Shown in pieces: positions 4,928-61,252 of a stretch of DNA of 64,000 nt. The stretch is from a virus (Duplodnaviria > Caudoviricetes): IMG/VR virus record IMGVR_UViG_3300028596_000001; one strand, given 5' to 3'. Each line of letters begins with the position of its first letter. The first letter of the stretch is position 1. The notes under the pieces are model-generated. The model searched no databases, was not told the DNA's origin, and saw nothing but the letters and a program-made list of their open reading frames with translations. Both the position numbers and the translations under genes were made by a program.

Positions 4928-5328
4928 CTACTCTCCTTATACTCCTTGTAGGCTTTGGCGTTTTCCTTAGCCTTATCTTCTCGACATACGAATGTATCAT
5001 ACACACCGGTGCAATGACGATAGTTGTAGTCTTTCGCCCAGGCGTCCAGATCACCCATGGTTTTTGCATAACCTAGCGCACACAGTAAAACAAAAGTGCC
5101 TAGGAGCAGCCAACCAACGAAGTTAGTCATTGGCGGGTCTTTCACAATCTTCACTGGCGGACGACGTGGTAGCACTGGCTTGTGCTTAGGGACCAACGGT
5201 AGCTTGGCGTGTGTTTCATACTTCCGTGACGGCGGAGGTGCCGCAGGAGCAGGAGGACGTTTGTAACTATGCCCTGGATACTCCTTGCCTTCCAGATCAT
5301 CAGGCGGGGGTATGGTGTCACGAGTCAT
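4924..5328 (-). CDS. Membrane-anchored CX8C paralog 6, with a Pro-rich N-terminus
   Basis: Start reassigned to ATG 5328 (GAGGTG RBS); TM helix then CTGVYDTFVC. Confidence 0.8.
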   Translation of the reverse strand: MTRDTIPPPDDLEGKEYPGHSYKRPPAPAAPPPSRKYETHAKLPLVPKHKPVLPRRPPVKIVKDPPMTNFVGWLLLGTFVLLCALGYAKTMGDLDAWAKDYNYRHCTGVYDTFVCREDKAKENAKAYKEYKESS

Positions 5329-5330
5329 AA

Positions 5331-5540
5331 TCACCTCGGCAAACAAGAAATGAAGAAAACCCACATGCCGATAACAGCAAGGATCAGCAACCAAAACCAA
5401 AGGTCATCGTTCAACTCTTTGGGTTGGTCTGCTTTAGCTGTACCGGGTTTGCGTATGTATACAAATACACCAGTAGAAGGGTCGTCTATGACGACCTCTT
5501 CTTTGGCTATGTATTGTCCCTCAATTGGTTTTGAGGGCAT
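5331..5540 (-). CDS. Small protein with a C-terminal TM helix
   Basis: 69 aa ending LWFWLLILAVIGMWVFFISCLPR. Confidence 0.7.
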   Translation of the reverse strand: MPSKPIEGQYIAKEEVVIDDPSTGVFVYIRKPGTAKADQPKELNDDLWFWLLILAVIGMWVFFISCLPR

Positions 5541-5790
5541 TGAGTCCTTCCTCGTACTGTTGTCTGAGTTCCGCTTGTTTCAAGCGTACTTGCAGGCATT
5601 CAGGAGTGGCGTATTCTTCCGCACAGACAGTACGGTTGTGGGCGTCTTTAAGACGACGAGCATTTTCCCCGTCAACCTTGATGCCGTAGAACACCGCCCC
5701 ATAAACAAGGACTACGATAAGTGCGAATATAGCAACGACAAACCAGCACCCAGGTCCGCCCTTAATTAGGATTTCCCCCAGTCGTTTCAT
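5521..5790 (-). CDS. Membrane-anchored CX8C paralog 5
   Basis: TM helix, CAEEYATPEC, coiled coil; 4-nt overlap with the upstream gene. Confidence 0.8.
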   Translation of the reverse strand: MKRLGEILIKGGPGCWFVVAIFALIVVLVYGAVFYGIKVDGENARRLKDAHNRTVCAEEYATPECLQVRLKQAELRQQYEEGLNALKTN

Positions 5791-6017
5791 TTAAGCAACT
5801 CCTTTTGTCGACTTTCCAACAAGAGTTTCTCGATCTTGTACTGGTGGCAAGGAATGGTGTCGAAGCGACCAACACAATTGGTCTTGTTATCTTCACGGAT
5901 CTCGCCACGACGCATCTCAACCCACTTCTCTATTAGCAGTACGGAAGGCACGCCTATCACAACAATAATAGCAATGCGGCTCAAATACCACCACCACCAC
6001 GTATTACGTCCTCTCAT
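5787..6017 (-). CDS. Membrane-anchored CX8C paralog 4
   Basis: TM helix, CVGRFDTIPC, coiled coil; ATGA overlap. Confidence 0.8.
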   Translation of the reverse strand: MRGRNTWWWWYLSRIAIIVVIGVPSVLLIEKWVEMRRGEIREDNKTNCVGRFDTIPCHQYKIEKLLLESRQKELLK

Positions 6018-9036: not shown

Positions 9037-9621
9037 TTACTCTTTTCCTAAGAAGGTTTTACTTGCTGTAAAGTACACTTGTTTACGATCGAACACACAG
9101 AACTCGGCTTTACCTGCGGAACCATGACCACTACCGCCGTGGATGGCTCCGTCATAGCCGAGCTTACGCAATCTGTTCACTTCCATGAGGCTTTCGAAGA
9201 AACGATGGGCCTGGAAGTACAACTTGGATAAATCATCTCGCTCCGACAGGTATTCCGGAACACTCCGGAAATACATACTCAGCTTGCGCCAATTGTCGGT
9301 TTCTTCAATATACTTGGCGAAACGGAGAGCGATCCGCTTAGCTTCGCCTTTACCCAAACGTTCAGCCACGTCACTGAGTTCCAGGAACGGATCATCAGGC
9401 TGGTCGATAAAAGGTCGGTCCAGTACCAAATGAACCGGGTAGACACGTGAGGTGTAATAGTTGCCAGTGGTGCTGTCGACCTCGGAATAGATGTTGGCCG
9501 TGTCGATATCTCCGAAATACAAAGCACGGAGATTAGACTTAGGCGTATCGTAAGCGGGGTGGGTACATTCGCCCCGGAACAAACGCAAAGCCTGACCATC
9601 AGGTCCTTTATAAAACGGCAT
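9037..9621 (-). CDS. ADP-ribosyltransferase-like protein (ART-PolyVal type)
   Basis: LFRGE / LYFGDIDTANIYS / VYPVHLVLDRPF / LRKLGYDGAI / EFCVFDRKQV; ATG 9621 fits the AGGAG spacing. Confidence 0.65.
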   Translation of the reverse strand: MPFYKGPDGQALRLFRGECTHPAYDTPKSNLRALYFGDIDTANIYSEVDSTTGNYYTSRVYPVHLVLDRPFIDQPDDPFLELSDVAERLGKGEAKRIALRFAKYIEETDNWRKLSMYFRSVPEYLSERDDLSKLYFQAHRFFESLMEVNRLRKLGYDGAIHGGSGHGSAGKAEFCVFDRKQVYFTASKTFLGKE

Positions 9622-9634
9622 AACCAACTCCTTA

Positions 9635-10273
9635 TTAATAACCTTCTTGGTCGTCGATAGCGTGGTCGAAGAAATACGACATACCAGAGAAACCGAAGTG
9701 GTGGAACATCATGACCTTACCTTTGAAATGGGTAAGGCCTTTTTCACGCGCCCACTTGTAGTACGACTTCTTGATGAGGTCTTTCTCATCTTCGATAGTC
9801 CACTTATCGTGTTCACGCAGCCACTTGGCGTTGGTGGATACTTGGAAGCCCCAGACTTCTTTGTCGTTGTAGATAACCCCGTGGTTACCTTCAGCGATCA
9901 TGCGCTCAATGATCTCACCCCAGCGCACCTTTTCCGCGAAGTACTTCAGTACGTGCTTCACCGGGCACTTGGCCGACATGATGTTATCCAGCAACGAACG
10001 TTGCATGAAGCGTGGTACGTTGTGGTAGTTACGTTGGCACAGCTGGATGATCTTCTTCGGGTTATCGGTGAAGTAACGGTAGAAGTAATCGATCAACTGG
10101 TTTTCCTGTTCGATCGGATACAGCGAATCATCCAGAACGAAAGGTGGTGGGGTCTTACGGAAACTAGGCGGGGTTTTGGTATACTGCTTCCAAGCCAAGG
10201 CCAGTTCGCTCAGGGCTTCGTCAGACAGTTTAGCGTTAGCCAGCTCTTGTTTCAACTCAGTGGTAGCGTCCAA
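9635..10273 (-). CDS. Hypothetical protein
   Basis: 212-aa ORF with strong C-ending codon bias. Confidence 0.75.
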   Translation of the reverse strand: MDATTELKQELANAKLSDEALSELALAWKQYTKTPPSFRKTPPPFVLDDSLYPIEQENQLIDYFYRYFTDNPKKIIQLCQRNYHNVPRFMQRSLLDNIMSAKCPVKHVLKYFAEKVRWGEIIERMIAEGNHGVIYNDKEVWGFQVSTNAKWLREHDKWTIEDEKDLIKKSYYKWAREKGLTHFKGKVMMFHHFGFSGMSYFFDHAIDDQEGY

Positions 10274-10582
10274 TTACTTATTCCTTTCCTGTAAACGTTT
10301 ATTTTTGCTGCGGATATTACGATTAGTACGACGAAGTTGTTTAACCTCGTCTTCCAGCCACAACATACGTTGGGCTACGGCAGCTATCACATGTTCTGGG
10401 ATAGTGGTTTCTTCCAGGTGCTCGGTAGCCAATAGGTCTACCAGAATCTCTTCGGTAGACTTTTCTGGATAGATGAACTCCGCACGAGTAATGGGTTGGT
10501 TAAGTTTATATTTTGTAGCAAAATACGCCAAGTGGTCTTTAACCAGTACCCCATTGGAATCGAAGTTTAAACGATTACCCAT
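10274..10582 (-). CDS. Hypothetical protein with a C-terminal coiled coil
   Basis: 102-aa ORF in operon. Confidence 0.7.
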   Translation of the reverse strand: MGNRLNFDSNGVLVKDHLAYFATKYKLNQPITRAEFIYPEKSTEEILVDLLATEHLEETTIPEHVIAAVAQRMLWLEDEVKQLRRTNRNIRSKNKRLQERNK

Positions 10583-10591
10583 GGAACCCCC

Positions 10592-10981
10592 TTAGTGCTT
10601 GACGACTTCTTTCTTGTTCTGATACTCGTCGACGTAGGTTTTAACGCCAGTGATCAGAACATCGACGATGTCGTCATCGAGTTTATCTTCACCATGGAAC
10701 ATGACGGTCATGCGCATGTCCTTTTTGTCTTTCAGTGAGTGCGCAGTTAACAGGCCGATCTGCTGAGTACCTTTCTGCTCGGCGATTTGGATGGCGATCA
10801 TCTTCTGCTTCTTGTTGTTCTTGCCTTCGGCGCAGTTGAACAAGAAGTGGCGACCGCGGAGTACTTCTGGGATCGACTCAGCGTGATCAAAGATCAATGC
10901 CGGGATAGTCTGCTGTTCGTGGATGAACTGGAACAGTGCATCATAGGTTTTGGTGAACGGGGATTTCTTGACGATAGCCAT
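10592..10981 (-). CDS. Hypothetical protein
   Basis: 129-aa ORF, GGAG RBS, biased codons. Confidence 0.75.
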   Translation of the reverse strand: MAIVKKSPFTKTYDALFQFIHEQQTIPALIFDHAESIPEVLRGRHFLFNCAEGKNNKKQKMIAIQIAEQKGTQQIGLLTAHSLKDKKDMRMTVMFHGEDKLDDDIVDVLITGVKTYVDEYQNKKEVVKH

Positions 10982-10990
10982 TGTGGCTCC

Positions 10991-11529: not shown

Positions 11530-11536
11530 CTATGGG

Positions 11537-12148: not shown

Positions 12149-12164
12149 GCGTAGCTCCTGCTAT

Positions 12165-13701: not shown

Positions 13702-13778
13702 CTGGTATTCCCTTCTTGGTTTATTTAGAGGTTAACAACAGTTACTCCCTGCAAAACTTCGTCCATAGTTCTGGTTTC

Positions 13779-14446: not shown

Positions 14447-14457
14447 CTATGCTCCCC

Positions 14458-14664: not shown

Positions 14665-14678
14665 AAATCACCTATAAT

Positions 14679-14727
14679 GCAAAAAGAAAAGGTGAGCACC
14701 AGGTACCCCCGAAGGAGTACCTGGCAC
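14679..14727 (-). terminator. Intrinsic terminator
   Basis: Stem gtgccaggtac/gtacctggtgc followed by TTTTCTTTTTGC on the minus strand. Confidence 0.7.
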
Positions 14728-14734
14728 TGAACCG

Positions 14735-26675: not shown

Positions 26676-29144
26676 TTAGACTACCACGCTGTGCTTGTTA
26701 GGGGTGCCGGGTAATGTCAGTCCCTCGTACTTAAAGGCAATGATATTCGGATCCTTGAGGATACCGTATTGCCCGAAATAGTGAGAGACCATGAAGAGTT
26801 GCCGTGGGTTCTTGCCCTGCGTGTATTCCTGGATGAAGTTAAAGAAGCGGCCGCGCTTGATCTCGTCAAACGACACACCAACCTCATCCATGATCAACGG
26901 AGTAGGGAACCCTACGTATGCAGCCAATACAAAACGAAACGCCCAGTCAATCATGTCGGTTTCACCGGCAGAGCATTCCGAGATATCCGGGGTGGGGTCA
27001 GCATCACCCGTCACCACTGGGAACTTGTAATTGAGGTCCCCGTTCTCTTTGTTGCAAGGTTTCACATAAAGAGTGGTGTTCCAGATTTCTTTAATAACAG
27101 TGTTGACGTTACCGCACAACGAATTGATGAAGTCGCTCATCAACTTACCAATGATACCCTTGCTAGGGCACAGGCCATCCATCAGGATCTCGACGGTCTT
27201 GAGTCGAGCACGCATCCGGTTAATGTCAGAGGTAATGGATTCCACTACCGCTGTCAGGCTCTTGGCGTTGATGATCGAACTCATGTGTTCGTCTTTCATG
27301 CCAGTCAGTTCAGAAACCCGAGTGTCTACCAAGTCACGCAACTGAACGTTAGCACGGTTAGCCATGCCTTCCAGGAGTTCTACTTGCAAGAGACGAACTT
27401 CTTCGATCTCCCGCTCATAGTTGGCGATGCTCATCAACTCTTCGTTAAGCAAGAACACCCGGCGCTTGTAGAAAGAGATCTGGTTATTCACACCCACCAA
27501 ATCAGTCTCAAGGTTCTGGACATGTGTTGCGATATCCAAAACGTTATCTTGGCTGATAAGGTCCAAGCGAGCGTCTACAACCTTCTTCTCATCGAACAGG
27601 GTCTGTCGGTAAGCAATCACCCCAACACGGCACATAAACGCATCCAGGACGTTACAGAGGGGTCCTGCTGGCGACTTACCAATGTTGTACGAACGAATCA
27701 GTTCTGGAAGTACCCGAACGTTACCATTCTCCCGAACAAAGTTATAAAGCTGGTTCATTGTCAGATACCATTCGGCATCGTTTTCAATACGCAGATCCAA
27801 AGCTTTACTTTGAGCAGTTAGTCGTTCTACCTGGCCATATTGCGCCGCAATGGTTTCTTGCAGCGTGGCAATGTCCTTTTGGGTAATCCCTACCTTAAAT
27901 GTGCTGGTGCAATCAGGACACTCGATATTCTCAGCCGACTGGTAGTGACGGAGTTTATGCTCCATCTGTTCCAATTGCGATTTAAGGTTACGCAGCTTGT
28001 TGCCTAGTTGTTCCTGATCCAGCAGCAACTGCTTATAAGCGCCGCTGGTGAGACTTTCGTCACTCAGGGTAACAACCCTACCCAAGTACTCTTTAAACCT
28101 GCCTACGACGTACTCCAGGCCTGTAAAGACCATCTCTGGGTCATCGAACACCGGCTGGTTGTTAAGCAGGTTGTTATAACGCTCCAGATCCTTATTGGTT
28201 CGCGCCAAGTCCTCGTCGATGTGCTTGGCTTGGTCCTTGAAAGCACCAGGATCTTTCAGGAAGTCATCCAATCCTTCGAGGTAGGAGGCGTGCTCCGCGA
28301 TAACCCCTTTCAGAACGTTGGCCTTGTCCTGATACTTGCTCAGCATGCCGTCTGCTGTGTCATAGGCCGACTCAAGCTCTTCCTTAGAGAACTGAACACC
28401 GCTGAGGTTATTTACCAACAGCTTGTCCACCAAGAAAGTATAACGATCATGTTTACTACGCAGATTAGGATCCATCTTAGCCGATTCCAAACGCCCACGC
28501 ATTAACAACGAACTTTGCAGATCTTGATCGACCTGCTTAATCCGACGCTCGAGTTCCTCTACCCCACAATTACTAAGTGTGGAGAGTTTACGGTTCTCTT
28601 CGGTGTGGCGTTCGATCTGCTTCTTGATCGTTGACTTGAGGTCGTTACGTTCTTGTCGCAGTTTCGAGTAAACCCCCAACGCGTATTCCGTGTCGTTAGG
28701 GTAGACCTGGAGGATAACTTCCTTGCGACGGTTAGGTGACATGGCCGAAAGACGGTCTACCATCTTCAAGCCGTTCAGGATCCGAATCAATCCGCCGTCT
28801 GCTTTGCCGAAGTGGTTGTAGACCAATTCTTTCTGTGCACTGTAAGTACCGCCAGTGTTCAGCTCAGGACCGTCGTCAATTTTAAAGCTATGACCGTTAC
28901 CCACCCCGGTGTAACTGTCGAGTTTGTACGTCCGCTTATTGTGTATGTATTCCACATACTTCCGCCCACCACGGTAGTTACCGTTCTCTGGTGGTAGCGG
29001 ATTAAGTTCTTTTAAGCACGACGTCTTCCCCACGCCATTTGGCGCAATAAACAAATTGATCATGCTGCGCGTGTCCAACTCAATCTTGGTGATCCCACTC
29101 GACAGCAAAGGAATGTAATTTTCGAGAATCAGTTTTACAAGCAT
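26676..29144 (-). CDS. SbcC/Rad50-like SMC ATPase
   Basis: Walker A APNGVGKT, coiled coils, CPDC hook, SAGE signature, Walker B LIMDE; start reassigned to ATG 29144. Confidence 0.92.
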   Translation of the reverse strand: MLVKLILENYIPLLSSGITKIELDTRSMINLFIAPNGVGKTSCLKELNPLPPENGNYRGGRKYVEYIHNKRTYKLDSYTGVGNGHSFKIDDGPELNTGGTYSAQKELVYNHFGKADGGLIRILNGLKMVDRLSAMSPNRRKEVILQVYPNDTEYALGVYSKLRQERNDLKSTIKKQIERHTEENRKLSTLSNCGVEELERRIKQVDQDLQSSLLMRGRLESAKMDPNLRSKHDRYTFLVDKLLVNNLSGVQFSKEELESAYDTADGMLSKYQDKANVLKGVIAEHASYLEGLDDFLKDPGAFKDQAKHIDEDLARTNKDLERYNNLLNNQPVFDDPEMVFTGLEYVVGRFKEYLGRVVTLSDESLTSGAYKQLLLDQEQLGNKLRNLKSQLEQMEHKLRHYQSAENIECPDCTSTFKVGITQKDIATLQETIAAQYGQVERLTAQSKALDLRIENDAEWYLTMNQLYNFVRENGNVRVLPELIRSYNIGKSPAGPLCNVLDAFMCRVGVIAYRQTLFDEKKVVDARLDLISQDNVLDIATHVQNLETDLVGVNNQISFYKRRVFLLNEELMSIANYEREIEEVRLLQVELLEGMANRANVQLRDLVDTRVSELTGMKDEHMSSIINAKSLTAVVESITSDINRMRARLKTVEILMDGLCPSKGIIGKLMSDFINSLCGNVNTVIKEIWNTTLYVKPCNKENGDLNYKFPVVTGDADPTPDISECSAGETDMIDWAFRFVLAAYVGFPTPLIMDEVGVSFDEIKRGRFFNFIQEYTQGKNPRQLFMVSHYFGQYGILKDPNIIAFKYEGLTLPGTPNKHSVVV

Positions 29145-29199
29145 GGTATAGATTTCCTTAACGGATACCTGTCCTTTTCTAAAGTATGGAGTACGTGGT

Positions 29200-30198
29200 A
29201 TGAGTTTATTGCAGTTTCTCGGAGTGGGTACCGTTACCGCTACCAAGGACACCAATACCAACGAAGTAATGGTTTACGCTCCGTTCTTATTTCCGCAGGC
29301 TGAGGGTCGTCTGTCGGCAAACGCTGAACGGGTAGAACGGGTAAGTAAGAACGCCGCTGGTGAAGAAGTTCGTAGTACTGCTTTAAAGAGCAATAGTATT
29401 CCGGCTGTCTGGCGGAAGATGGATAACAGTAACCGTATCTCAGCTCCTGACGTTCGGGAGGGCAGTAAGGTAAGCATCTACCGCATCCCAGGTCAGAACG
29501 TTTACTACTGGTCACTGGATGGGGTGAACCCTGATACCTTCCGGATGGAGACAGTCCAGTACGGTTGGAACGCTAACCCTCACGTAGGGGAAAACGGAGA
29601 GTTCGAGGTAGACAACTTCTACCTGCTCAACTTTGACACACGTAACGGTCTTATCCAACTCCGTACCAGTGAGGCCAACGGCGAAGCTACTACCTTCGAT
29701 ATCCAGATCAATACCAAAACTGGTACGATCAACTTCGGTGGTAAGAACGGTAGCATGCTGAAGTATGACGACGTCGAGCGCTCGTTTACTTACACCAACC
29801 AAGACGGTAGTGTGTTGCGGGTGGTGAAGGAAGAGATAATCGCCCATGCCCCGAAGAGTATCTCTCTGTTCACTGACCAAACCGTTAACCTGAAAACCAA
29901 GACCCTCAAGATCCAGGCAGAAGAAGCTTTTGTCGATATTGGGGTGACCAAATGGAAGGGGCGTTTCGAACATACCGGGGATAGTACCCAGTTGGGTGAC
30001 CACGACCAGGTAGGACGGACGTCTCAAGAAGGTAACTACATCCAAGAGGGTGATTTCACTCAGGACGGTAACCAGGTTACCTTTGGTCTTATTATCGGTA
30101 CTGAGGACGTACGCACCTCTACCGTTAGTCTTAACCTCCACCCACATAGTGGCGTTGAGGGCGGTAAAGATACTTCGGGCCCGCCCGTACCAAGCTGA
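29200..30198 (+). CDS. Baseplate central spike protein
   Basis: N-terminal OB-like region, beta-helix repeats (GDSTQLGDHDQVG...EGNYIQEGDFTQDG), terminal HPH metal-binding motif. Confidence 0.8.
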   Translation: MSLLQFLGVGTVTATKDTNTNEVMVYAPFLFPQAEGRLSANAERVERVSKNAAGEEVRSTALKSNSIPAVWRKMDNSNRISAPDVREGSKVSIYRIPGQNVYYWSLDGVNPDTFRMETVQYGWNANPHVGENGEFEVDNFYLLNFDTRNGLIQLRTSEANGEATTFDIQINTKTGTINFGGKNGSMLKYDDVERSFTYTNQDGSVLRVVKEEIIAHAPKSISLFTDQTVNLKTKTLKIQAEEAFVDIGVTKWKGRFEHTGDSTQLGDHDQVGRTSQEGNYIQEGDFTQDGNQVTFGLIIGTEDVRTSTVSLNLHPHSGVEGGKDTSGPPVPS

Positions 30199-30202
30199 CA
30201 TA

Positions 30203-30248
30203 TACCTTACTACTCCTACCGGCCCTAAAGCCGGTAGGAGTAGGGGTA
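30203..30248. terminator. Terminator hairpin between convergent genes
   Basis: 14-bp stem ctactcctaccggc/gccggtaggagtag. Confidence 0.7.
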
Positions 30249-30251
30249 CGT

Positions 30252-33149: not shown

Positions 33150-33170
33150 GTAGTTCTCCTGTAAAGAACT

Positions 33171-33190
33171 GGGTGGGTTTTACCCCACCC
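33171..33190. terminator. Intergenic hairpin
   Basis: gggtggg-tttta-ccccaccc. Confidence 0.5.
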
Positions 33191-33199
33191 TAACAGAGT

Positions 33200-36919: not shown

Positions 36920-36939
36920 TCTTGATGCCTTTTAAAACA

Positions 36940-36971
36940 GGGGGAGTGTGGGGCGAACCCCACACCCTCCC
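36940..36971. terminator. Intergenic hairpin
   Basis: gggagtgtgggg-cgaa-ccccacaccctccc (TTCG loop on the minus strand). Confidence 0.55.
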
Positions 36972-36978
36972 ATTTACT

Positions 36979-39900
36979 TTAAGGAAGGAGTTCATCACTC
37001 CGTAGCCAAGGCAACTGACCTTCTGTGTTAGCCAGACCAGAGCTAGCAGGAATGCTGTTACCCCGCTTGAGTTCAGAAACACGGTTACCGTTTAGTGTAA
37101 ACACGTTAAACCGTTCGATCGTAGAGATCTGCAAAGGACCGGTGACCACAGTACCTACCCACAACGAGAACGGAGACTCCAGACGTTTGTCCGCAGCAAT
37201 CTCGTATGTCGGCACACCGTTGCGCAACAGCGCATAGATGTAGAAGGTTTTGTTCTGTGGGGCAGGATCGATATCGCGCAGGTCGATAGCTCCAGGCGGG
37301 AAGTTGTAACTCTTCCCGTTGAAGACTGCCTTAATAGCAGACTTGAAGAACACAGTCCAGCCGATCTGCGGATAAGCCGAACCAAGCAGGACCGTTTTAG
37401 TAGCGCCCTGGAACATGGTACCTGCACCGCCGGTCGAGCTACTGTGTGGTAGGGCATACACTACTGCGTCATCAGGAGCAACGCACTTGTGATTACCGCC
37501 GCCACTCTGCCCAGTCATGGTAATAAGGGTTGCCGAATCATTCCAGCGACGAGTTGCTTTGTTGTCGTATTGGAACAACGAGTAAGTAACCAAACTATCT
37601 CCTGGTCCCCCCGCACTAATCCCTGGATCAAAGAATCCAATGATCTGGTTACCGTTTACATGGTAGCCAGCACGCGGAGCGCCGTGTGTCGAGTTAGGGT
37701 GGTTACCAGCCACAAAAGCGTCCCAGGTAGTAGGGGTGAGGTAAGCAGCAGCGCCTTCATACACGTAATGCTTTTTATCAAGCACCGTGTACCCAGTGAC
37801 TACCTTGTTGGCTCCCCCGGAATAAACCGGGGCGATGCTGAGCAAAGTAACACGACGATCTGTTGTACCTACCTTGGCCCAGTTGATCATCACCATGATC
37901 GGCAGCCAACCAAACTTGTTGGTGAGATCGCCAGTTGGGTCACAGATGCTGACAAAGACTCTAGGACATACGTTCATCCCTGCAACATCATCAACCTCTG
38001 TTTTAAGTTGGTTAACGATGGACTGCGGATACAAGATTGTCGAAGTGGGGACAATATTGATAGTGCCGTCAGCCTGTATTTGTCGAACGTGTCCTGTGAT
38101 CAATGGAACGTCGTCAGGGTTAGTGCCGGCGAACCAAGTACCAGGGTACTGGGCGTAATCCATGTACTTCTTCTGAACGCCTACACAGAAAGTCGACTCT
38201 CCGAGATCGGTGCCAAAGGAATCCAACTGAGCTGCAGGGACGGTAACACTAGCCCCACCAGCTTGCGGAGGTCCGTTAACTTGACGAACGTCGTTGTTCA
38301 ACGGGCGCGCCAGCATATTGGGGTACAGGATGTTGGTTACTTCAGTGCGCTTAGCCAACTTCCCCGGGCCAACACGGTAATACAACCGATTGAAGCCAAG
38401 GGTTGCAGGATCAGGAGCATTGTAGAAATCGCCACCATTGCCCAACAGGAACGATCTAGGCTTCACCGTAGACTTCAGCGGGCTTACGATCGTTTCGATT
38501 ATCCTGGTATCACTAACGTCAGCATCTACCTCCGTATTCCATACCCGCCGCATTGTTTCATAAGGGGTTTTCCAACTACGTGATTTCAACATGTGCATAC
38601 CACGTGGGAAACTTTGGTATTCACCCCTGCTGGCAACAATGGTACCATCATCAAGAATGGTCACGCCCTGCTGTCGGTCGTAAAACACCAACAGGGTCAT
38701 TACGTTATTGCCCCGGCTCGGCAGGTTGGTGTAATCCAAATTATGCCGAGGGGTCTGGTTGACCAACGTCATTATGTTGGTGGCCGGATCGAACTCATAC
38801 AACATATCGATCATGGTGTCATAGTTGACGTTAATGCCAGGGACGATGTACCTGGAATAGAACGCAGCCATGAACCGCAACAGGAATTTACCTGGCTTGT
38901 CCGGGATTGGGCAGACCAGGGTTTGCTGTCCTCGATAAGCCCCAGTGGTAATCAAATTATCCTTCTGGACAAAATCGAAGTACCATCTGTAGTAGTGGTC
39001 TGACTTACCATTCGGATGCGGGATAGGGGTACCCCAGCGCCAGTTTGGTGAGTTCATCCACTGCATGCCCTCGCCGTCTTTAAAGCTGAGGGTTACATGT
39101 ACGGCGGTGGCCGGCAACTGACTGGCTACAGTAGCCTTGGGTACCCTGAACATATACCGGAAGTTAATCCCGGTGGTGCCAAATTCCGCTACCTTGCTAG
39201 CGTTATAAGGCGTTGCCAGTACCAGATAAATCCAGTCGCCCATCAACACCACACTAAGGTTGTTAAACCAACCAACGACACTGTGGCCTGCCGGAAGCGT
39301 GTTCGCAAGTGCCGAGACGTCCAAACGGCTGTAAACGTGTTTAGCTGGATCCAGCGAACCGTTAGTCAACCCGAGATAGAACGCATTCTTGGTGCTGTCG
39401 CATACCAGGATAACTTCTTTACCGCTACCTTGGGCAATGAAGTTAGGCCTGGCACCATCCGCCTCGAACAACTGGTGGGTATAACGATAACCGGTGTAGT
39501 CCAATTTCGGTTTGTCGTATGGGGTTTGTACCACAGAGTAATACAAGCCCTGCACCCGGCCATCGAAACGGTTGGCCAGGAACACTAACGAACCGTCAGA
39601 CTCCATGCAGATGCCAGCGGTTTCGGACATACCGCCCAAACCTTCAAACGAACCGTCGATAGAAGGCGGGATGAAGTTACTGTTACCGAACTGGGCAACA
39701 GGCAACAGGTTACTACCCAGCAACTCCGCAGCGTTGAACGCGTAGGTGTCGAGGATGGTCTTCATGCCGCCTGGAGTGAGGTGACGATCACTACGCGGAG
39801 TAATCAGATCGTCACCACGAGCAGTGGGGAAGTTGTCCACCAGCCCCAGGCCAGCCTGGGTCTTGGTGAAGCCATGGCTGTCGTAAGCGTTCTTGTGGCG

Positions 39901-40530
39901 GTTCAGGCTGTCCAACAACTCAGTCTTGTAGACGTTGATGTAGTTGGTCATCAAGTTGATGTAATGATCGAACTTGACTTCCAGCGCAGTACGAGCATTC
40001 ATCTCCATCAGCGCCATCATCGATTCGATCAGGTCCACCCAATCCTTGAACGCCACCATGTCGTACAGCAGGCTGTGGCGGTGCAGCTTAGGCCGGAACG
40101 ACGTTGGCTTGTTGGTGAGGTATTCCCACCAGGCCGGACGGTTGTCGTTGGTGAGATCGATAACCATCTTGAGGAAAGTACTGTCGAACAGACTGAACTC
40201 CCCTACCACGTCGTAATCGATAAACCCGGCAGTGATATCCGGATTCAGGAACTCGATCATGCACGCTACCGGTTTAGCGGTAAGTTCGGTCAACCCACCC
40301 ATGATGCGGTAAATGCGGTAGTCACCCTTACCTTCCTTGTTAGCCGCAACAAGTGGTTCCATGTTCGCGTTGTAAACCCGCAGGCTCTTTACAAAGAACG
40401 GGGCGTTAACCGGTACTACGATCCTGGTCCAAATCCCAGGGGCCATAGCAAACGGTTCCCCCTGGATTTTGTTATCAGGATTGATATTCAGAATATCCTT
40501 GCGGTATTCCGGGACAATAGGGAAGTTCAT
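36979..40530 (-). CDS. Tail fibre/baseplate-associated virion protein (paralog 1)
   Basis: ~1183 aa from ATG 40530 (AAGGA RBS); same architecture as the 33200 gene. Confidence 0.8.
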   Translation of the reverse strand: MNFPIVPEYRKDILNINPDNKIQGEPFAMAPGIWTRIVVPVNAPFFVKSLRVYNANMEPLVAANKEGKGDYRIYRIMGGLTELTAKPVACMIEFLNPDITAGFIDYDVVGEFSLFDSTFLKMVIDLTNDNRPAWWEYLTNKPTSFRPKLHRHSLLYDMVAFKDWVDLIESMMALMEMNARTALEVKFDHYINLMTNYINVYKTELLDSLNRHKNAYDSHGFTKTQAGLGLVDNFPTARGDDLITPRSDRHLTPGGMKTILDTYAFNAAELLGSNLLPVAQFGNSNFIPPSIDGSFEGLGGMSETAGICMESDGSLVFLANRFDGRVQGLYYSVVQTPYDKPKLDYTGYRYTHQLFEADGARPNFIAQGSGKEVILVCDSTKNAFYLGLTNGSLDPAKHVYSRLDVSALANTLPAGHSVVGWFNNLSVVLMGDWIYLVLATPYNASKVAEFGTTGINFRYMFRVPKATVASQLPATAVHVTLSFKDGEGMQWMNSPNWRWGTPIPHPNGKSDHYYRWYFDFVQKDNLITTGAYRGQQTLVCPIPDKPGKFLLRFMAAFYSRYIVPGINVNYDTMIDMLYEFDPATNIMTLVNQTPRHNLDYTNLPSRGNNVMTLLVFYDRQQGVTILDDGTIVASRGEYQSFPRGMHMLKSRSWKTPYETMRRVWNTEVDADVSDTRIIETIVSPLKSTVKPRSFLLGNGGDFYNAPDPATLGFNRLYYRVGPGKLAKRTEVTNILYPNMLARPLNNDVRQVNGPPQAGGASVTVPAAQLDSFGTDLGESTFCVGVQKKYMDYAQYPGTWFAGTNPDDVPLITGHVRQIQADGTINIVPTSTILYPQSIVNQLKTEVDDVAGMNVCPRVFVSICDPTGDLTNKFGWLPIMVMINWAKVGTTDRRVTLLSIAPVYSGGANKVVTGYTVLDKKHYVYEGAAAYLTPTTWDAFVAGNHPNSTHGAPRAGYHVNGNQIIGFFDPGISAGGPGDSLVTYSLFQYDNKATRRWNDSATLITMTGQSGGGNHKCVAPDDAVVYALPHSSSTGGAGTMFQGATKTVLLGSAYPQIGWTVFFKSAIKAVFNGKSYNFPPGAIDLRDIDPAPQNKTFYIYALLRNGVPTYEIAADKRLESPFSLWVGTVVTGPLQISTIERFNVFTLNGNRVSELKRGNSIPASSGLANTEGQLPWLRSDELLP

Positions 40531-40540
40531 GGATTGTTCC

Positions 40541-41305
40541 TTAATCGAGTTTAAGGGTACCATCCCGCAGCTGACGGAGACCCTCTTTAAAGGTTTCCAT
40601 GGTCAAGGTGACGTTGGCACTGTTACCCTTAAGGTCGTTGGTAGTCGACGGGCGGTTGTTCGCCACATCTGGAATACCGAGATCGCCTTTGTCGGCCGGG
40701 TGTGCTTCTGGCAGACGTTTCTGCAAGTGCTCTTCCAGCAAGGCCAGGGCGTTGGTAGTAGCTGAGGTGTCAGTCAGTACCATGATCAGGCTTTTCAGCG
40801 CGGTGTAGTTCTCCAGCCAGTCGTAGGTCTGGGTCTCTGGGTGTTCGTGTGGATCTGGTGGGAAGTCGAACGGTACGTCTACCAGATCACCCCAGTCAAC
40901 GATACGCGGGCTGTTGGCAATGTTCGCCACCAGGGTAGCCCAAGCCACTTCATCGAGGATGAACGGACCACCGATGGTATCGTAGTCGCACAACAGTACT
41001 TCGTTGGGGAACGGCTTCAACAGTACGATCGCACCAAAACAGTTACGCTGGTAGGTCTGAATGAAACGATCGAAGCTGTGAGCGAAGGCGTAGTCTACGC
41101 CTGGAGTAAGTGGGGTGTTACTACCTTGACGACGGATTACAAACTTGCTGTTGGGCTTGGTAACTGGAGCGCCAGAAAAGAACGGACCGCAGCGAGGAAC
41201 GAAGACACGACGGTCATTATCACCGGAGGTTTTGATGACTTCTCCGATGATCCTGCAATCGATTCGCTCCTGGAATGGGTTCCATGGATAAGTGGGGTTA
41301 GCCAT
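40541..41305 (-). CDS. Baseplate wedge-type structural protein
   Basis: Shares the N-terminal module (VPRCGPFF, WGDLVDVPFDFPPDPHEH) with the large paralogs. Confidence 0.7.
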   Translation of the reverse strand: MANPTYPWNPFQERIDCRIIGEVIKTSGDNDRRVFVPRCGPFFSGAPVTKPNSKFVIRRQGSNTPLTPGVDYAFAHSFDRFIQTYQRNCFGAIVLLKPFPNEVLLCDYDTIGGPFILDEVAWATLVANIANSPRIVDWGDLVDVPFDFPPDPHEHPETQTYDWLENYTALKSLIMVLTDTSATTNALALLEEHLQKRLPEAHPADKGDLGIPDVANNRPSTTNDLKGNSANVTLTMETFKEGLRQLRDGTLKLD

Positions 41306-41433
41306 CAATAATGCTCCTGTTAAGAATTACTAGGGCTGAAGGCATTTTATGACCTGCCCCTTACAGTGAAGCTGAGGGCTATAAGCTTATAGCCTTAGCA
41401 TTTTTCATAGAATCCAAAGGAGTTGCACCCCCT

Positions 41434-46144: not shown

Positions 46145-46558
46145 TTATAGACGAATAAGCTGGAAGCTTGTCGATTTAAAGCGCATAGAATCTGCGGCTA
46201 TGACTACACAAAGGTGTTCTTTTTCCGGCACCAGGTAAGCAATGTCTTCTTCTACCAGACTGTGGCCAGTGTGGCGATTAATCCAATTGGAGATCATCGC
46301 CTTACTGTGGTTCACGTCGAAGTCGTTACGATACTGCTTGGGAATAGACAAAGACTTCATCCTGCTAAACCCAGACAGATCGACTTTCTCCAGTTCGTAG
46401 TAGAGCGCTTCTTGCCCAGGGTGCTGGATTAGGAAGACCGCATTACCTTTAGCGTTGGTAGAAACGTGTTGAAAGGTGATCTCGTTGATCACCCGAGGGT
46501 CTTTAATGAACAGACCCTCACAGTACTTCTTCTTAATTAAGGCCAGGACCTTGTTCAT
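46145..46558 (-). CDS. Small virion adaptor-like protein
   Basis: 137 aa; YELEKVDL...INRHTGHSLVEEDI...IAADSMRF pattern seen in phiKZ-like virion proteins; ATGA-coupled to the 770-aa gene. Confidence 0.55.
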   Translation of the reverse strand: MNKVLALIKKKYCEGLFIKDPRVINEITFQHVSTNAKGNAVFLIQHPGQEALYYELEKVDLSGFSRMKSLSIPKQYRNDFDVNHSKAMISNWINRHTGHSLVEEDIAYLVPEKEHLCVVIAADSMRFKSTSFQLIRL

Positions 46559-48867
46559 TTAGCGTTCAGGACCTCGTAGTCAGTTGGTGGTACCTCGACC
46601 CAGTTAGGCTTTTCACCCAGCTTGCCGTAGTAGGTATCAGGTATCTCGAGCCACTTGGGCTTGGTGGTCAGATCCCCGTAGTACGTATCCGGGATAATCA
46701 GCATCTTCGGATTGCTACCGAGTTCGCCGTAGTAGGTATCTGGGATAATGAACTCGTTAGGCTCATCGTCCCCTACTTTGCGGAAGTAGGAGTTATCCGT
46801 CATCCGAACAGCGTAGTACCACGGTTTGTCCACACGGTTAACCGGCTTGATGTGACCACGATCGGCTAGCGTTTGCTTTGCCGACATATCCGCCACGATA
46901 GCCGGTCTGTTAGGCGTGTAGACCTTGAGCACTGACTCCAAGTTACGAATGCCGTCCATGTTGCTTTGGACGTTGAGCATCACGTTCTCGAAGTTACCCA
47001 CCAGCTTGTTACCAGGACCAGTCCACCTGCTATCTCCTACAAACGTCTCGTTGAGCATTTCGGTAACCGACACGTCATCGTCCATTTCTTTAATGACGTG
47101 AATGGTGTACGAACTCAGACGGGTCATGATCTCGATCAGATCGTTTTGCTTAACCCGCATGTTAGGTTGGATATTGGTATCCCAGCCAGTTACTCGTTTG
47201 AAGATGTCCCAGGCAAAAGACTTACACTCAGCGGCAGTATAGTCGGAGAAGTCGAAGTTGTAGTCTTTCAACAACTGTTGGTAATTGGTGTATTCACCAA
47301 CCTTGACGATCCCTGACTCGTACACTACCTTAGTCGCGTTCTTTACCCGAGCCCGTTTGTTGAGGTCGTAGAACTGACTGTAGAGTTTCTTGTGCTTCCA
47401 CATCGCCTCGTAAACTTCGAAGGCGTATTGGATCAGGTAATCAGGGGCCACAAAGTTAGCCACTGGGAACCAGATATCCCGGATGTCGAAAGCCAAGTAC
47501 GATGGATAAATGAAGTCCTTACCGCCTACATGAACGATCTCAGCAACTGTAGGTGGCTTGATGCGCATCACGTTCTGGTAATAGACCGGGCAGATGTCTA
47601 CCGGGCTCTTACCGTTACTGTAATCGACCAGGTACTTCCAGATGTGGTAAGCATCCGTAACAGGCAGACGTACTTGTCGGCCGGTCTTAGGGTCGTTAAC
47701 GATTACACGACCTTGGAACTTGTTGTTACTCGCCAGGTAGATCCACTCGTTGTACACCACCGACATCAGGGTATCTGCGTGACGGTTGGTGTAGTCGCGC
47801 ATACTCGACTCGAGGGCTTTGGTAGGCAGCTCCGAGTGGATACTGTTCTTACCGCGCTCTAGGGCGTCTTCCTGGTAGATCGACGTCTGCTTGTAGTTGT
47901 CCTTCGCCAGCGGCTGCTGCTTCATGATCAACTGTTCGGTGTTGATATACGCTGGTTCCCGCCCGTAGTCCTCGATGAGGTTCAGGTGGAGCTTGCGGTA
48001 CAACGGGGTAGGGGTCAGGTCGTCGAGCTGAGTAGCTGTACCTTCTACCATGTCATACTTAGCCAATGGGATATTCGCTACGGTGAGCAAGTTCTCCATC
48101 AGCTTATCAAAGGTGAACATCTGGCCTGGGTTGTTCTTAATCCAAGCGATGTTCCGGAACAGCCACATTACCTGATGACGATTCAGGCTGTTCTTGTACT
48201 TGGAGAAATCCCCGTAGGAATCAATGTGGCTCCAAATATAGAAATCGTGGCTATGGCGGGTGTACATGTGTTCTATGCGGATGGTGTGGATCGCCTTGAT
48301 GATATCCGCGTACAGCAGGCGCACCATTGTAGGTAGGAACAGGTCATCAGTGTAGATGTACTCACTGGTGAGGATCTGGTCCACTTCCGCTTTGATAAAG
48401 TTCTGCAACTGAGGGATCAGCTGCGTCTCGTTCCACATAACCAAATCTTGGTTATAGCGAAGGATCTTATAGTCCTCGGCCTCAATGGTCTCGGTATATG
48501 GGATCGGAGAAAGAATGCCACGAATCAAAGTAGGCTGTGACGGGTACTGCTGGATCAGCCTGCTAAACCAGTAACCCCCCCGAGAATACTCCCGGAAGGT
48601 GGCTAAGTGGTAACGAAGGTTTTCTTTGTTGAAAACAATCTCTTCATCAGTATCCAGTGAGCGGATAACCATCGGGACGTCGGTCTCGTGGTAATCACCG
48701 TTCAAGTTCATGTAGTAGCGCCAGGTACGCTTGTCTTCACTGACAGGAAGTCCGGCGCGCACTAATGCCTGGTTATATCGCTTAGCCAAGGGCTCAATTT
48801 TGATAACCATAGTTCTTGCCAGGGCGAATATGTCCCGGAAGAACTTATCTTTATCGGCATTATTCAT
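46555..48867 (-). CDS. Large baseplate-region structural protein with C-terminal 17-aa repeats
   Basis: 770 aa; WRYYMNLNGDYH N-terminal motif of phiKZ-like baseplate proteins; divergent from portal. Confidence 0.75.
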   Translation of the reverse strand: MNNADKDKFFRDIFALARTMVIKIEPLAKRYNQALVRAGLPVSEDKRTWRYYMNLNGDYHETDVPMVIRSLDTDEEIVFNKENLRYHLATFREYSRGGYWFSRLIQQYPSQPTLIRGILSPIPYTETIEAEDYKILRYNQDLVMWNETQLIPQLQNFIKAEVDQILTSEYIYTDDLFLPTMVRLLYADIIKAIHTIRIEHMYTRHSHDFYIWSHIDSYGDFSKYKNSLNRHQVMWLFRNIAWIKNNPGQMFTFDKLMENLLTVANIPLAKYDMVEGTATQLDDLTPTPLYRKLHLNLIEDYGREPAYINTEQLIMKQQPLAKDNYKQTSIYQEDALERGKNSIHSELPTKALESSMRDYTNRHADTLMSVVYNEWIYLASNNKFQGRVIVNDPKTGRQVRLPVTDAYHIWKYLVDYSNGKSPVDICPVYYQNVMRIKPPTVAEIVHVGGKDFIYPSYLAFDIRDIWFPVANFVAPDYLIQYAFEVYEAMWKHKKLYSQFYDLNKRARVKNATKVVYESGIVKVGEYTNYQQLLKDYNFDFSDYTAAECKSFAWDIFKRVTGWDTNIQPNMRVKQNDLIEIMTRLSSYTIHVIKEMDDDVSVTEMLNETFVGDSRWTGPGNKLVGNFENVMLNVQSNMDGIRNLESVLKVYTPNRPAIVADMSAKQTLADRGHIKPVNRVDKPWYYAVRMTDNSYFRKVGDDEPNEFIIPDTYYGELGSNPKMLIIPDTYYGDLTTKPKWLEIPDTYYGKLGEKPNWVEVPPTDYEVLNAK
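46558..46761 (-). repeat. Four tandem 51-nt (17-aa) repeats
   Basis: PNEFIIPDTYYGELGSN / PKMLIIPDTYYGDLTTK / PKWLEIPDTYYGKLGEK / PNWVEVPPTDYEVLNAK. Confidence 0.95.
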
Positions 48868-58841: not shown

Positions 58842-58886
58842 AATTAGTTTCTCTAACCTAATAATTTAGGTTTGAAATATTCCATT

Positions 58887-58945
58887 GCGAAAAAAAAAAC
58901 CTCCCCCTACCCTATCCCCGGTTAGGAGGATAGGGTAGGGAGAAG
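58887..58945 (-). terminator. MCP transcript terminator
   Basis: ccctaccctatcc/ggatagggtaggg stem followed by T10 on the minus strand. Confidence 0.85.
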
Positions 58946-58974: not shown

Positions 58975-59054
58975 CCTCTCCACACCATAGGGTCCTGTTA
59001 AGTAAAACTCTTCAGGACCCCGTAGTACGTGTCGGGGAGGCTTACGGGTTTGGG
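58975..59054 (-). other. Putative -1 programmed ribosomal frameshift signal of the MCP gene, with extension ORF
   Basis: Slippery C CCA AAC (59054-59048) in MCP frame, 7-nt spacer, ~66-nt hairpin (59040-58975); -1 frame reads PVSLPDTYYGVLKSFT-stop (TAA 59000-58998). Confidence 0.8.
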
Positions 59055-61252
59055 ACTGGGTTGTTGCCTTCGGTAGCGGTGATCAGCTCGTCCATCTTGG
59101 CAGCGAGACCAACCACTTCCACGCGCTGCTTGGCCAGCTTGGTCAGCAGACCTTCGTCGCCCAGGAACTTGCGAGCGTCGGTGATGGTCAGGGAACCGAT
59201 GATCGGGTTCAGAGCCCAGTGCTTGTAGGTCGGCAGGGTCATCACGACACCGAAGTCCTGCTGATCACGAGTCACGTTACCTTGAACAACGATGTTCTCT
59301 TTCGAGACCACGACACCGACACCGCCCAGAGGGTTGATGAAGTCGGAAGTCGAGTTGTTCTTGGTGACGATCAGGATCTGACCGATCTGGCTGTCGAAGT
59401 TGGTTTCGATAGCGGTCATGTTGACCATCGAGCCCAGAGTACGAGCATCGCCAGTCTTCATCAGGAAGCGACGCAGGTTCTGGTGGACGATGATGTTCCA
59501 CTCAGGAGCGGTGGTACCGCCGTACTCAGCGATGGCAGCCAGGCCGGACTTGGTGGTCAGAGCCGAGGTGATGTCGCTCAGTTCGTTGGTGAACACAGCC
59601 GATACTGCATCGAACACGCCGGTGGAGTCAACCACGGACACCACGTCTTCCAGGGTGATCGAACGGTTGACAGCCGAAGCAGTCACGTAGTGCATGCCAG
59701 GCAGCACGTTCGAACCTTGGTTGTTCGACACGACAGGGTGACCGTCGATCGAGGTGATGTACTTCAGGTGTTCCTGAGCCATGTCGAAGGCTTTCTTCGA
59801 GCACTGGTTGTTGATCGCGACCGACATCTGCTGGATGGCGTAGTCCAGGGAGTCCTGGTTCACGTCTTCCTTGCTGATTGGGTACTTGACCGACACAGGC
59901 GAACCGCGGCGAACCGACAGGTGCTTGTCAGCGTCGAACACTTCGATACGGTAGCCGAAGTTACCGCGCGACAGGTTGTTGACGTTGGCGCGGGTTTTGA
60001 TACCCGATACCGAGCCCTTGGTCAGCAGCTTGATCAGCGCCTTCTGGGTGTCGTCACCACGACCACGGTCAATAACGTTGCCGGTGGCGATGTGGGTCAG
60101 AGCCGAGATGGTCACGTGACCGCCGTTGAGGCGCATGGTGTTCTTCTGGCGCTGGAAGCTGCCCTGCATCGACACTTCGAGCATCGGCTGGTAGCCAGCG
60201 TCTTTGAACGCCTTGAACAGGGTTTCGCCGACACGGTTGCCGTCTTTGTCCAGTACGGCGAAGCCGTTGAACTGGTTCAGCAGCATGCCCAGCTGGCGGT
60301 CGTCCGAGGACTGGCCGTTGGTGGTCGGGTTGAAGGTGTTGTTCGACATCGCTTTGGTATCGATGAAGAAGATCTTCTCGACGCCGTCGATGGTCGCGGT
60401 CAGCTGCAGAGCTTCACCGGTGATCGAGTTGGACTCGATTTCGTCGGTGCTGGTCCAGGCGCGCTGGCCAGGAGCTTGGCAGAGGCCCAGGAAGTTCGGG
60501 ATGACGCTCGGAACTTTCAGGTAGCCAGTCAGGTGGTTCTCGCGGCCGTAGGCGTCAGCTTCCGGGTAGGTAGCAGGCCATGGGGCGATGGTAGCGGCGT
60601 CAACGAACAGCTCGCGAACGTCATCACCGGCGTCTTCCGGGTAAACCGGGTAGATGGCCAGGACTTCGTCTTTGAACATTTCGCCGGTACGCAGCAGGCC
60701 GAAGATTGGCTTCAGCTCGGAAGCTTGCTGCCAGGCGTTGTTGCCGTAGGCATAGTTGCCCAGGCCGGCAGCGCGGACCTTCAGCAGAGCGCCTTCGTCT
60801 TCGTAGCGAACGGTGATGGTCGAGAACAGAGCTTCGGCCGCAGGGGTCTGCAGGTGGCTCTGGGCGTTCAGGGTCATGTTCGCAGCTTTGATGTCTGCTT
60901 CAGAACCGCGGAAGTTCTGCATGGAGAAGCCTTCCAGACCACCAACGGTGGAGTAGAAGTCTTCGGTCTTCTCGACGATCTCACGCAGGTCGCTGGCAGC
61001 GACTTTGTCGGTACGAGCCATGGAGCTCTGGAACGCGGCGTAGGTCTTGTCGTTCAGACGACTGTGCAGCATGCCCATCAGGTTTTGGCTTTCGACGCCT
61101 TGCACCTGGGCGAGACCGACTTTGTCGGCGAACTCGCTGAAGCTTTCGACACCGGCGTGAGCCGACAGTGTCTGGTTTTGTACAGCCGAACGGATCAGGT
61201 GAAAGAGGTTGCCCTCGTTCTTCAATCCGGTTTTGATCTCTTTGTAGGCCAT
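59042..61252 (-). CDS. Major capsid protein (phiKZ gp120-like)
   Basis: 736 aa; strongest codon bias in the window; QTPAAEALF, DQIGQI, HWALNPIIG; G-x-E protease sites; divergent from DnaB as in phiKZ-like genomes. Confidence 0.88.
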   Translation of the reverse strand: MAYKEIKTGLKNEGNLFHLIRSAVQNQTLSAHAGVESFSEFADKVGLAQVQGVESQNLMGMLHSRLNDKTYAAFQSSMARTDKVAASDLREIVEKTEDFYSTVGGLEGFSMQNFRGSEADIKAANMTLNAQSHLQTPAAEALFSTITVRYEDEGALLKVRAAGLGNYAYGNNAWQQASELKPIFGLLRTGEMFKDEVLAIYPVYPEDAGDDVRELFVDAATIAPWPATYPEADAYGRENHLTGYLKVPSVIPNFLGLCQAPGQRAWTSTDEIESNSITGEALQLTATIDGVEKIFFIDTKAMSNNTFNPTTNGQSSDDRQLGMLLNQFNGFAVLDKDGNRVGETLFKAFKDAGYQPMLEVSMQGSFQRQKNTMRLNGGHVTISALTHIATGNVIDRGRGDDTQKALIKLLTKGSVSGIKTRANVNNLSRGNFGYRIEVFDADKHLSVRRGSPVSVKYPISKEDVNQDSLDYAIQQMSVAINNQCSKKAFDMAQEHLKYITSIDGHPVVSNNQGSNVLPGMHYVTASAVNRSITLEDVVSVVDSTGVFDAVSAVFTNELSDITSALTTKSGLAAIAEYGGTTAPEWNIIVHQNLRRFLMKTGDARTLGSMVNMTAIETNFDSQIGQILIVTKNNSTSDFINPLGGVGVVVSKENIVVQGNVTRDQQDFGVVMTLPTYKHWALNPIIGSLTITDARKFLGDEGLLTKLAKQRVEVVGLAAKMDELITATEGNNPVPNP

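Follow-up and report, generated by a model that had tools for sequence, protein, structure and literature searches.

Probable docking-peptide repeats on the baseplate wedge protein of a nucleus-forming jumbo phage are shared with a small virion-type protein and a putative capsid extension

Why would a phage baseplate protein end in four copies of one short peptide? The question is raised by a gene within a 64,000-nucleotide stretch of DNA (the window) from the IMG/VR virus record IMGVR_UViG_3300028596_000001, in which four units of 17 amino acids (aa) make up aa 703-770 of a 770-aa protein (window positions 46558-46761, minus strand). The source is an uncultured nucleus-forming jumbo phage of the Chimalliviridae type, known here from its sequence; the window is part of a 184-kb contig, for which whole-contig coordinates are prefixed G000, and the genome is ~78% complete. 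A first-pass annotation, made from the letters of the window, had proposed that the units form a multivalent docking tail on a baseplate-region protein. As the same peptide also ends a 194-aa virion-type protein and a putative extension of the major capsid protein, the repeats most likely act as surface-filament anchors, and we consider it probable that they are docking peptides on a flexible tail of the baseplate wedge to which the subunits of head-to-tail filaments attach.

The sequence at 46558-46761 agrees exactly with the four units quoted in the first-pass annotation (Table 1). Their consensus is [ILV]P[DP]T[YD]Y[GE]xL, with PDTYYG in units 1-3 and a degenerate PPTDYE in unit 4. Pairwise, units 1-3 are 59-71% identical as protein but only 63-69% identical as DNA, with 4-6 identical residues per pair encoded by differing codons, and Tandem Repeats Finder reported no DNA-level repeat between 46000 and 47500 because the units are too diverged in DNA. 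Since the peptide has been kept while the codons have diverged, these are old copies under selection for the peptide rather than products of recent DNA duplication.

Which protein carries the repeats? The 770-aa protein matches phrog_3222 over aa 2-706 (E = 3e-216), phiKZ gp128 at 31% identity (E = 1e-85) and, over aa 1-601, the PDB chains 9xqs_C (PHIKZ128), 11lx_Bh and 36za_sR (E ~1e-83), of which 11lx_Bh has 803 aa, the same length as Goslar gp35. Judged by these matches, it is the orthologue of phiKZ gp128 and Goslar gp35, the wedge subunit equivalent to T4 gp7. In the virion structures of phiKZ and Goslar determined by cryo-electron microscopy (cryo-EM), this subunit is present once per wedge, sits in a heterotrimer with two gp6-like subunits, extends outward and contacts the first gp8-like spoke dimer (PMC13250141; PMC13742148). 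The gene neighbourhood also matches these systems, as the wedge gene is divergent from the portal gene, in synteny with phiKZ gp128/gp129, and upstream of a gp8-like spoke gene. Because these neighbours fit, both the identification as a wedge protein and the earlier label "baseplate-region protein" hold. The likeness to the proteins of known structure (PDB 9xqs, 11lx and 36za) does not extend to the C terminus, where phiKZ gp128 lacks repeats, Goslar gp35 has about four of a different peptide and the protein described here has four of the PDTYYG type. Since the phrog_3222 match ends at aa 706, the repeats lie beyond the conserved core of the family, and structure prediction gives the unbound wedge tail low fold confidence.

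Among cultured phages, the nearest relatives are Pseudomonas phage EL (57.7% identity over aa 1-716 of the 770-aa protein) and Erwinia phage RisingSun. We compared 48 wedge homologues, 36-100% identical over the C-terminal part, and counted copies of [ILV]P[DEPG]T[YD]YGxL: none in 5 homologues, one in 6, two in 11, three in 15, four in 8 and five in 3. The number of repeats therefore varies among relatives, from zero to five, while the core of the motif is kept, being conserved across homologues of 36-77% identity. EL gp104 carries the motif three times, in an EL flavour (LPETNYGRL, GPADYGRL and DPANYGRL).

Copies of the peptide occur elsewhere in the genome. A six-frame search of the 184-kb genome with a loose form of the motif gave seven matches, compared with 0.03 in shuffled genomes, and all are at protein C termini or in the -1 frame extension of the capsid gene: the four wedge units, the capsid extension and one each at the ends of the 194-aa protein and a 352-aa protein. 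The 13-nt identity between the wedge repeats and the capsid region that had been noticed at the outset is likewise real. The window has exactly two copies of the 13-mer ACGTACTACGGGG, at 46674-46686 and at 59018-59030, against a shuffle expectation of 0.07, and the latter belongs to the -1 frame that runs across the stop codon of the major capsid protein gene. The 352-aa protein is 17 residues longer at its C terminus than its homologues, and one motif unit has therefore been appended to it in this phage; to judge from this sequence, the unit is portable. The protein belongs to a fibre gene cluster of five tandem paralogues (G000 9576-15506; 352, 315, 323, 305 and 666 aa; phrog_1062/3589 domain), which adjoins a 979-aa tail-fibre gene, and the appended unit is found only on the 352-aa paralogue.

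Could capsid subunits acquire the peptide? The 3′ end of the capsid gene reads GTC CCA AAC CCG TAA and contains the heptamers C_CCA_AAC and A_AAC_CCG. Each of 28 related IMG/VR loci (capsid identity 54-83%), and EL as well, has a motif peptide of 14-22 residues encoded in the -1 frame over the capsid stop, and stops occur shortly upstream in that frame. Equivalent slippery sites are present in the relatives, four loci having only a C_CCG-stop context. The end of the capsid gene thus combines a slippery X_XXY_YYZ sequence, a short open -1 frame and a peptide that is conserved in relatives, all features of -1 frameshifting, and the capsid copy, whose absence from relatives with repeats would have spoken against the first-pass annotation, is present throughout. 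A -1 frameshift here would append the motif to a fraction of the capsid subunits, giving a putative extended product. Downstream, ~60 nt beyond the -1 extension (58885-58945, minus strand), a hairpin rich in G+C precedes ten consecutive Ts and looks like the intrinsic terminator of the capsid gene.

These data bear on the simplest alternative, that the repeats are a neutral low-complexity expansion without function and the capsid copy a coincidence. Although copy number does vary and some relatives have no repeats, the synonymous divergence of the units, the retention of the peptide in distant homologues, the rarity of both the 13-nt match and the seven C-terminal matches in shuffled sequence and the capsid copy in 28 of 28 relatives are all contrary to neutrality; the conservation data effectively refute this explanation, and we give it practically no weight.

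The 194-aa protein is the likely partner. It has 22 close homologues, and P182, T184, Y186, G187 and L189 of its tail, which ends IP[DEP]T[DY]YGQL, are invariant across the 23 sequences. All 11 related genomes of at least 90% completeness encode the family, each having 2-5 paralogues, and in RisingSun some paralogues are N-terminal modules of 568-583-aa proteins. In a search of the genome, the family profile matches the wedge repeats through its tail positions. The AlphaFold2 model (predicted local distance difference test, pLDDT, 93.9) has a globular part to about residue 177 followed by the conserved tail. A Foldseek search of viral models with this structure returned matches among chimallivirus proteins only; among these, RAY and PhiPA3 virion proteins matched weakly (probability 0.89-0.90, template modelling (TM) score 0.35-0.39). 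The ESM Atlas gave no meaningful fold match (TM <0.33), a PDB sequence search with the family found nothing and the literature that we searched yielded no mention of EL gp147, the EL member of the family. No Pfam family was found for the wedge, 137-aa, 210-aa, 194-aa or 352-aa proteins.

Proteins of one phage share a clade-specific flavour of the peptide. In EL, the flavour YGRL.[FY].E[LI] is common to the wedge protein gp104, gp147 and the capsid extension, and other relatives have matching flavours of the motif within each genome. A 192-aa paralogue with the same N-terminal domain as the 194-aa protein (G000 5242..5820) has a different conserved tail, ...WNGEYVYDGTLTY (YDGTY.YDGT[IL]TY in relatives L089, L092, L094-L096 and L098-L100), of which this genome has no other copy; it may define a second, orthogonal type of peptide. 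The 194-aa gene itself is directly downstream of a gene for a GroEL-like chaperonin (phrog_5725; G000 28253..29920, L002:8253-9920), and in EL gp147 is directly downstream of the chaperonin gene gp146 (L104:2159-4627).

Does the globular part of the 194-aa protein bind the wedge tail? We predicted the complex of aa 1-175 of the 194-aa protein with wedge aa 696-770 in one job of three runs with three controls. The runs scored 0.93, 0.87 and 0.91 (median 0.91) and the best control scored 0.09. Of 80 solved complexes, 58 reached the score mark used for comparison, as did 2 of 110 mismatched pairs; this calibration is rough, as a custom alignment was used. Because the 194-aa family has no solved relative, the score does not reflect a structure that the predictor had already met. 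The best run places repeat 4 (aa 755-770) against receptor residues 64-76 and the first two helices, an interface that includes F65, W72 and T73, which are invariant in the family, and the near-invariant N69, P74 and A75. The model supports binding of the wedge tail to the globular part of the 194-aa protein, which is less than showing it, and together with the position of the repeats outside the core, their varying number, the low confidence of the unbound tail and the sharing of the peptide with the 194-aa family, this prediction favours the multivalent docking tail of the first-pass annotation.

If the 194-aa protein binds the peptide that it also carries, how might the parts be assembled? 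We propose that its globular N-terminal domain would act as a "socket", followed by a tail that ends in a "plug", and that each wedge repeat would be a copy of that plug. The socket would take the plug of the preceding element, such that subunits would chain head to tail. As a plug without a socket can only start a chain, proteins of this kind would act as anchors: the wedge tail, the -1 frameshifted capsid protein on the head and, with one plug, the 352-aa protein of the fibre cluster. Four plugs per wedge would provide 24 anchor points per baseplate, and the 17-residue spacing, ~6 nm if extended, suggests that neighbouring units could be occupied together. In other phages, the members of phrog_21620 have the socket domain and the 352-aa-type domain fused in one protein. 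It is by analogy that we infer that the 194-aa protein polymerizes, where in the virion it would reside and what it would do there; because the genome is incomplete, further plug- or socket-bearing genes may be missing from our list.

A system with this logic has been described in the same phages. DUF7941 proteins, which are specific to chimalliviruses, comprise Goslar gp22 and gp23 and phiKZ gp126, gp127 and gp143, with ~580 copies of gp22 and ~2140 copies of gp23 per Goslar virion (Basu et al., Sci Adv 2026, PMC13742148). Their flexible tail is predicted to dock on the next protomer's N-terminal domain, gp22 assembles into filaments once purified, and it is proposed that these hang from the baseplate periphery as a "fibre cloud" that is thought to aid host encounter (PMC13742148). 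Like DUF7941, the 194-aa family combines a small globular domain at the N terminus with a flexible tail after it, is restricted to chimalliviruses and has several paralogues per genome, some of which are N-terminal modules of long proteins; both systems would be associated with the periphery of the baseplate. The docking peptide described here is unrelated in sequence to those of DUF7941. PF25613 (DUF7941) has no match at E ≤1 in the 194-, 137-, 210- and 352-aa proteins or in the genome of this phage, and its one match in EL (E 0.06) is below the family cut-off. With neither a PF25613 match nor profile similarity, we regard the 194-aa family as one that would work like DUF7941, without filing it as a member.

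Several observations weigh against the proposal that the repeats anchor filaments of the 194-aa protein. The binding step depends on a single structure-prediction job, in which the pLDDT of the partner is at least 47 but below 50, and contacts agree at 92% between runs 1 and 3 but at 0% between runs 1 and 2 and 1% between runs 2 and 3; run 2 may have docked a different repeat. The 194-aa family has no detectable relation to DUF7941 (no Pfam match, hhalign probability 0.65%), and the match of its fold to likely DUF7941 proteins is weak. The 137-aa model matches the same RAY and PhiPA3 targets, which are candidate DUF7941 proteins, more strongly, and 14 targets are common to the two lists. In addition, 5 of 48 wedge homologues lack repeats, including that of a complete genome, G015. 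In G015 and a second relative, G002, the wedge proteins have 704-709 aa and no repeats, both genomes keep the capsid -1 extension, and G015 also keeps a motif-tailed 194-aa orthologue; the 194-aa family was not found in G002, which is 60% complete. Since the capsid copy is kept where the wedge has no repeats, anchoring at the wedge would be optional or dispensable and the copy number an evolvable dial.

The position of the 194-aa gene beside a phage chaperonin gene, here and in EL, is a further difficulty. It is conceivable that the peptide is a client tag and that the 194-aa protein is an adaptor that hands tagged wedge protein, itself and some capsid subunits to the GroEL-like chaperonin, and the predicted docking would fit any role in peptide recognition. 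We consider this improbable, as a low-frequency frameshift product would be an odd chaperone client, the RisingSun socket paralogues are the N termini of 568-583-aa proteins (one bears the name "putative virion structural protein"), the annotation of PHROG relatives is virion structural and the analogues in Goslar and phiKZ are plentiful in the virion (PMC13742148). Another possibility is direct attachment to the host surface, for which the tyrosine-rich repeats, at the rim of the baseplate and on the head, would serve as a multivalent adhesin of low affinity. Their exposed peripheral position, multiple sites and aromatic core would suit such a role; however, an invariant copy is present on a small protein that is assembled inside the cell and has a conserved complementary surface, which indicates a phage partner, and the peptide changes completely between clades yet matches the small protein of its own clade. 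That pattern fits co-evolution with a phage partner better than with host glycans, and we judge a direct adhesin to be very improbable.

The known contacts of the wedge suggest one more alternative, which is that the repeats dock the gp8-like spoke dimers (the 315-aa DUF7208 protein) or the 137-aa protein, serving as a spoke ruler or clamp. The wedge protein does contact the first spoke dimer in phiKZ and Goslar (PMC13250141, PMC13742148), and four or five repeats come close to the five dimers per spoke in these phages. The 137-aa gene overlaps the wedge stop codon, is conserved in that place and encodes a protein whose fold matches chimallivirus N-modules of the DUF7941 kind. However, the same peptide is present on the capsid extension and the 194-aa tail, neither of which is expected to bind the spoke, phiKZ builds five-dimer spokes without repeats on gp128, and both the spoke gene and the 137-aa gene persist in relatives without repeats. 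We therefore regard docking to the spoke or the 137-aa protein as unlikely, though it is the strongest of the competing explanations, and continue to favour anchors for filaments.

If the wedge and capsid copies anchor filaments in EL-like phages, is there a counterpart in the phages in which DUF7941 filaments were described? In Goslar, the capsid gene gp41 ends in TGA, and its in-frame continuation contains LDDNVADGFIAP (L035:43355-43441, minus strand). The tail of gp23 contains LADNVADGFVKP (L035:16862-17404), and the two share DNVADGF[IV]xP. Goslar gp35, the wedge protein, ends in about four L.GLW/T..P repeats (LDGLWLAP, LRGLTVTP, LQGLWIEP and LNRLIVKP). In phiKZ, the DUF7941 protein gp143 (L105:5694-6227) ends in ARYLENGQIRYLES, and the capsid gene gp120 ends in TGA followed by a 26-codon in-frame continuation that contains YRYLENGTIRYLED (L034:2510-2600); RYLENGxIRYLE is common to the gp143 tail and the continuation. 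The motif was not found in the -1 frame after the phiKZ capsid gene, where the extension is in frame instead. PA1C, Phabio and 201phi2-1 (L106, L107 and L108) have an open and similar extension after the capsid TGA, ~75% identical in DNA. The phiKZ-type extension looks, from these sequences, like a conserved UGA readthrough that would make an extended capsid subunit. In Goslar and phiKZ, as here, a peptide of the subunit tail is thus also encoded past the stop of the capsid gene, and the three clades would share one arrangement with three unrelated peptides and two routes of recoding.

Minor capsid subunits with C-terminal extensions are familiar from other viruses. The capsid gene of T7 and T3 gives 10A and, by a -1 frameshift near its 3′ end, 10B, and the A1 protein of Q-beta arises by UGA readthrough of the coat gene. 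The putative extensions described here resemble 10B and A1 in that recoding at the end of the capsid gene would yield a minor, C-terminally extended subunit. They differ in that the added peptide copies a motif that recurs in other parts of the virion, and this points to a defined function in docking. In its mode of working only, the wedge tail also resembles a cellulosome scaffoldin, whose tandem cohesins bind dockerins: one scaffold carries a row of equivalent docking elements, by which multiple copies or types of partner are recruited. Unlike in the cellulosome, the repeated element is a linear peptide of ~9 residues rather than a folded domain, and there is no homology.

The words "readthrough" and "frameshift" are absent from the Goslar (PMC13742148) and phiKZ (PMC13250141) structure papers, and the former does not identify the wedge tail or a recoded capsid protein as a filament anchor. 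Among the titles and abstracts that our searches returned, none concerned capsid frameshifting or readthrough in phiKZ-like phages, and DUF7941 was mentioned in the literature searched only by the Goslar paper and one unrelated paper. Our analysis adds a probable socket in the EL-like clade and the recognition that the anchors would be copies of the subunit's own tail, and it extends the pattern of capsid recoding to Goslar and the phiKZ-like phages.

The coordinates of the features are collected in Table 1. By position and predicted fold, the 137-aa protein appears to be gp126-like: the fold matches small chimallivirus virion proteins and N-modules. In hhalign comparisons it was related neither to DUF7941 nor to the 194-aa family. 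Goslar gp32 and phiKZ gp139, to whose positions the 315-aa DUF7208 protein corresponds, are T4 gp8-like and form the dimer from which the baseplate spoke is built and which touches the wedge protein (PMC13742148); an assignment of the 315-aa protein as the gp127 orthologue was ruled out on this match. Elsewhere in the window, at 26676-41308 (minus strand), is a run of large genes encoding proteins of 861, 965, 1239, 1194 and 255 aa. Three were scanned, and these (1239, 1194 and 255 aa) share an N-terminal domain of ~250 aa, phrog_2163. The genes of this run resemble the phiKZ gp131-135 fibre paralogues, which attach via their N-terminal domains.

Table 1. Features of the wedge, capsid and peptide-bearing loci (window positions unless prefixed G000)
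Feature	Position	Strand	Remarks
Spoke protein gene (DUF7208), 315 aa	45185..46132	-	PF23838, E 3e-97; phiKZ gp139 and Goslar gp32 positions
137-aa protein gene	46145..46558	-	Start overlaps wedge gene stop (ATGA); position conserved in relatives
Baseplate wedge protein gene, 770 aa	46555..48867	-	phrog_3222, phiKZ gp128 and PDB matches
Repeat 4	46558..46608	-	aa 754-770; PNWVEVPPTDYEVLNAK; unit docked in best predicted complex
Repeat 3	46609..46659	-	aa 737-753; PKWLEIPDTYYGKLGEK
Repeat 2	46660..46710	-	aa 720-736; PKMLIIPDTYYGDLTTK
Repeat 1	46711..46761	-	aa 703-719; PNEFIIPDTYYGELGSN
Portal protein gene, 1022 aa	48893..51961	+	phrog_3004; phiKZ gp129 position; synteny with phiKZ gp128/gp129
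Putative capsid -1 frame extension and stop	58998..59048	-	PVSLPDTYYGVLKSFT; fifth copy of wedge motif
Major capsid protein gene, phiKZ gp120 type	59042..61252	-	PF25620, E 2.9e-139; phrog_3231
Slippery stretch C_CCA_AAC_CCG	59045..59054	-	Last capsid codons; two overlapping X_XXY_YYZ heptamers
352-aa protein gene	G000 9576..10634		Outside window; motif at C terminus; fibre gene cluster
194-aa virion-type protein gene	G000 27359..27943		Outside window; EL equivalent tagged PPEV_gp147

What would peptide copying mean for these phages? Most of the peripheral baseplate and of the proposed filament cloud is without a model in the cryo-EM atlases of phiKZ and Goslar (2026), and a plug peptide on the wedge tail and on recoded capsid subunits is a concrete candidate answer to how the filaments are anchored, with the 194-aa family (EL gp147) as the likely socket in the EL-like clade. 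Tentatively, and with less confidence than for the EL-like phages, we suggest that surface filaments across the Chimalliviridae are anchored by peptide copying, in which the wedge tail and a recoded capsid C terminus copy the tail of the filament subunit. If so, the peptide would be PxTYYGxL in the EL-like clade, with a -1 frameshift, and DNVADGF in Goslar and RYLENGxIRYLE in phiKZ-like phages, both with UGA readthrough. This reading predicts unannotated isoforms of the capsid protein in phiKZ, Goslar and EL. If it is true, head and baseplate alike would be covered by the filament cloud, and the thousands of gp23-type copies per Goslar virion would be distributed over many short filaments instead of six of ~3 micrometres. 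It also suggests that the number of repeats tunes how many filaments each baseplate carries and that phages can rewire the decoration of their virions by moving a module of ~17 residues, as on the 352-aa protein.

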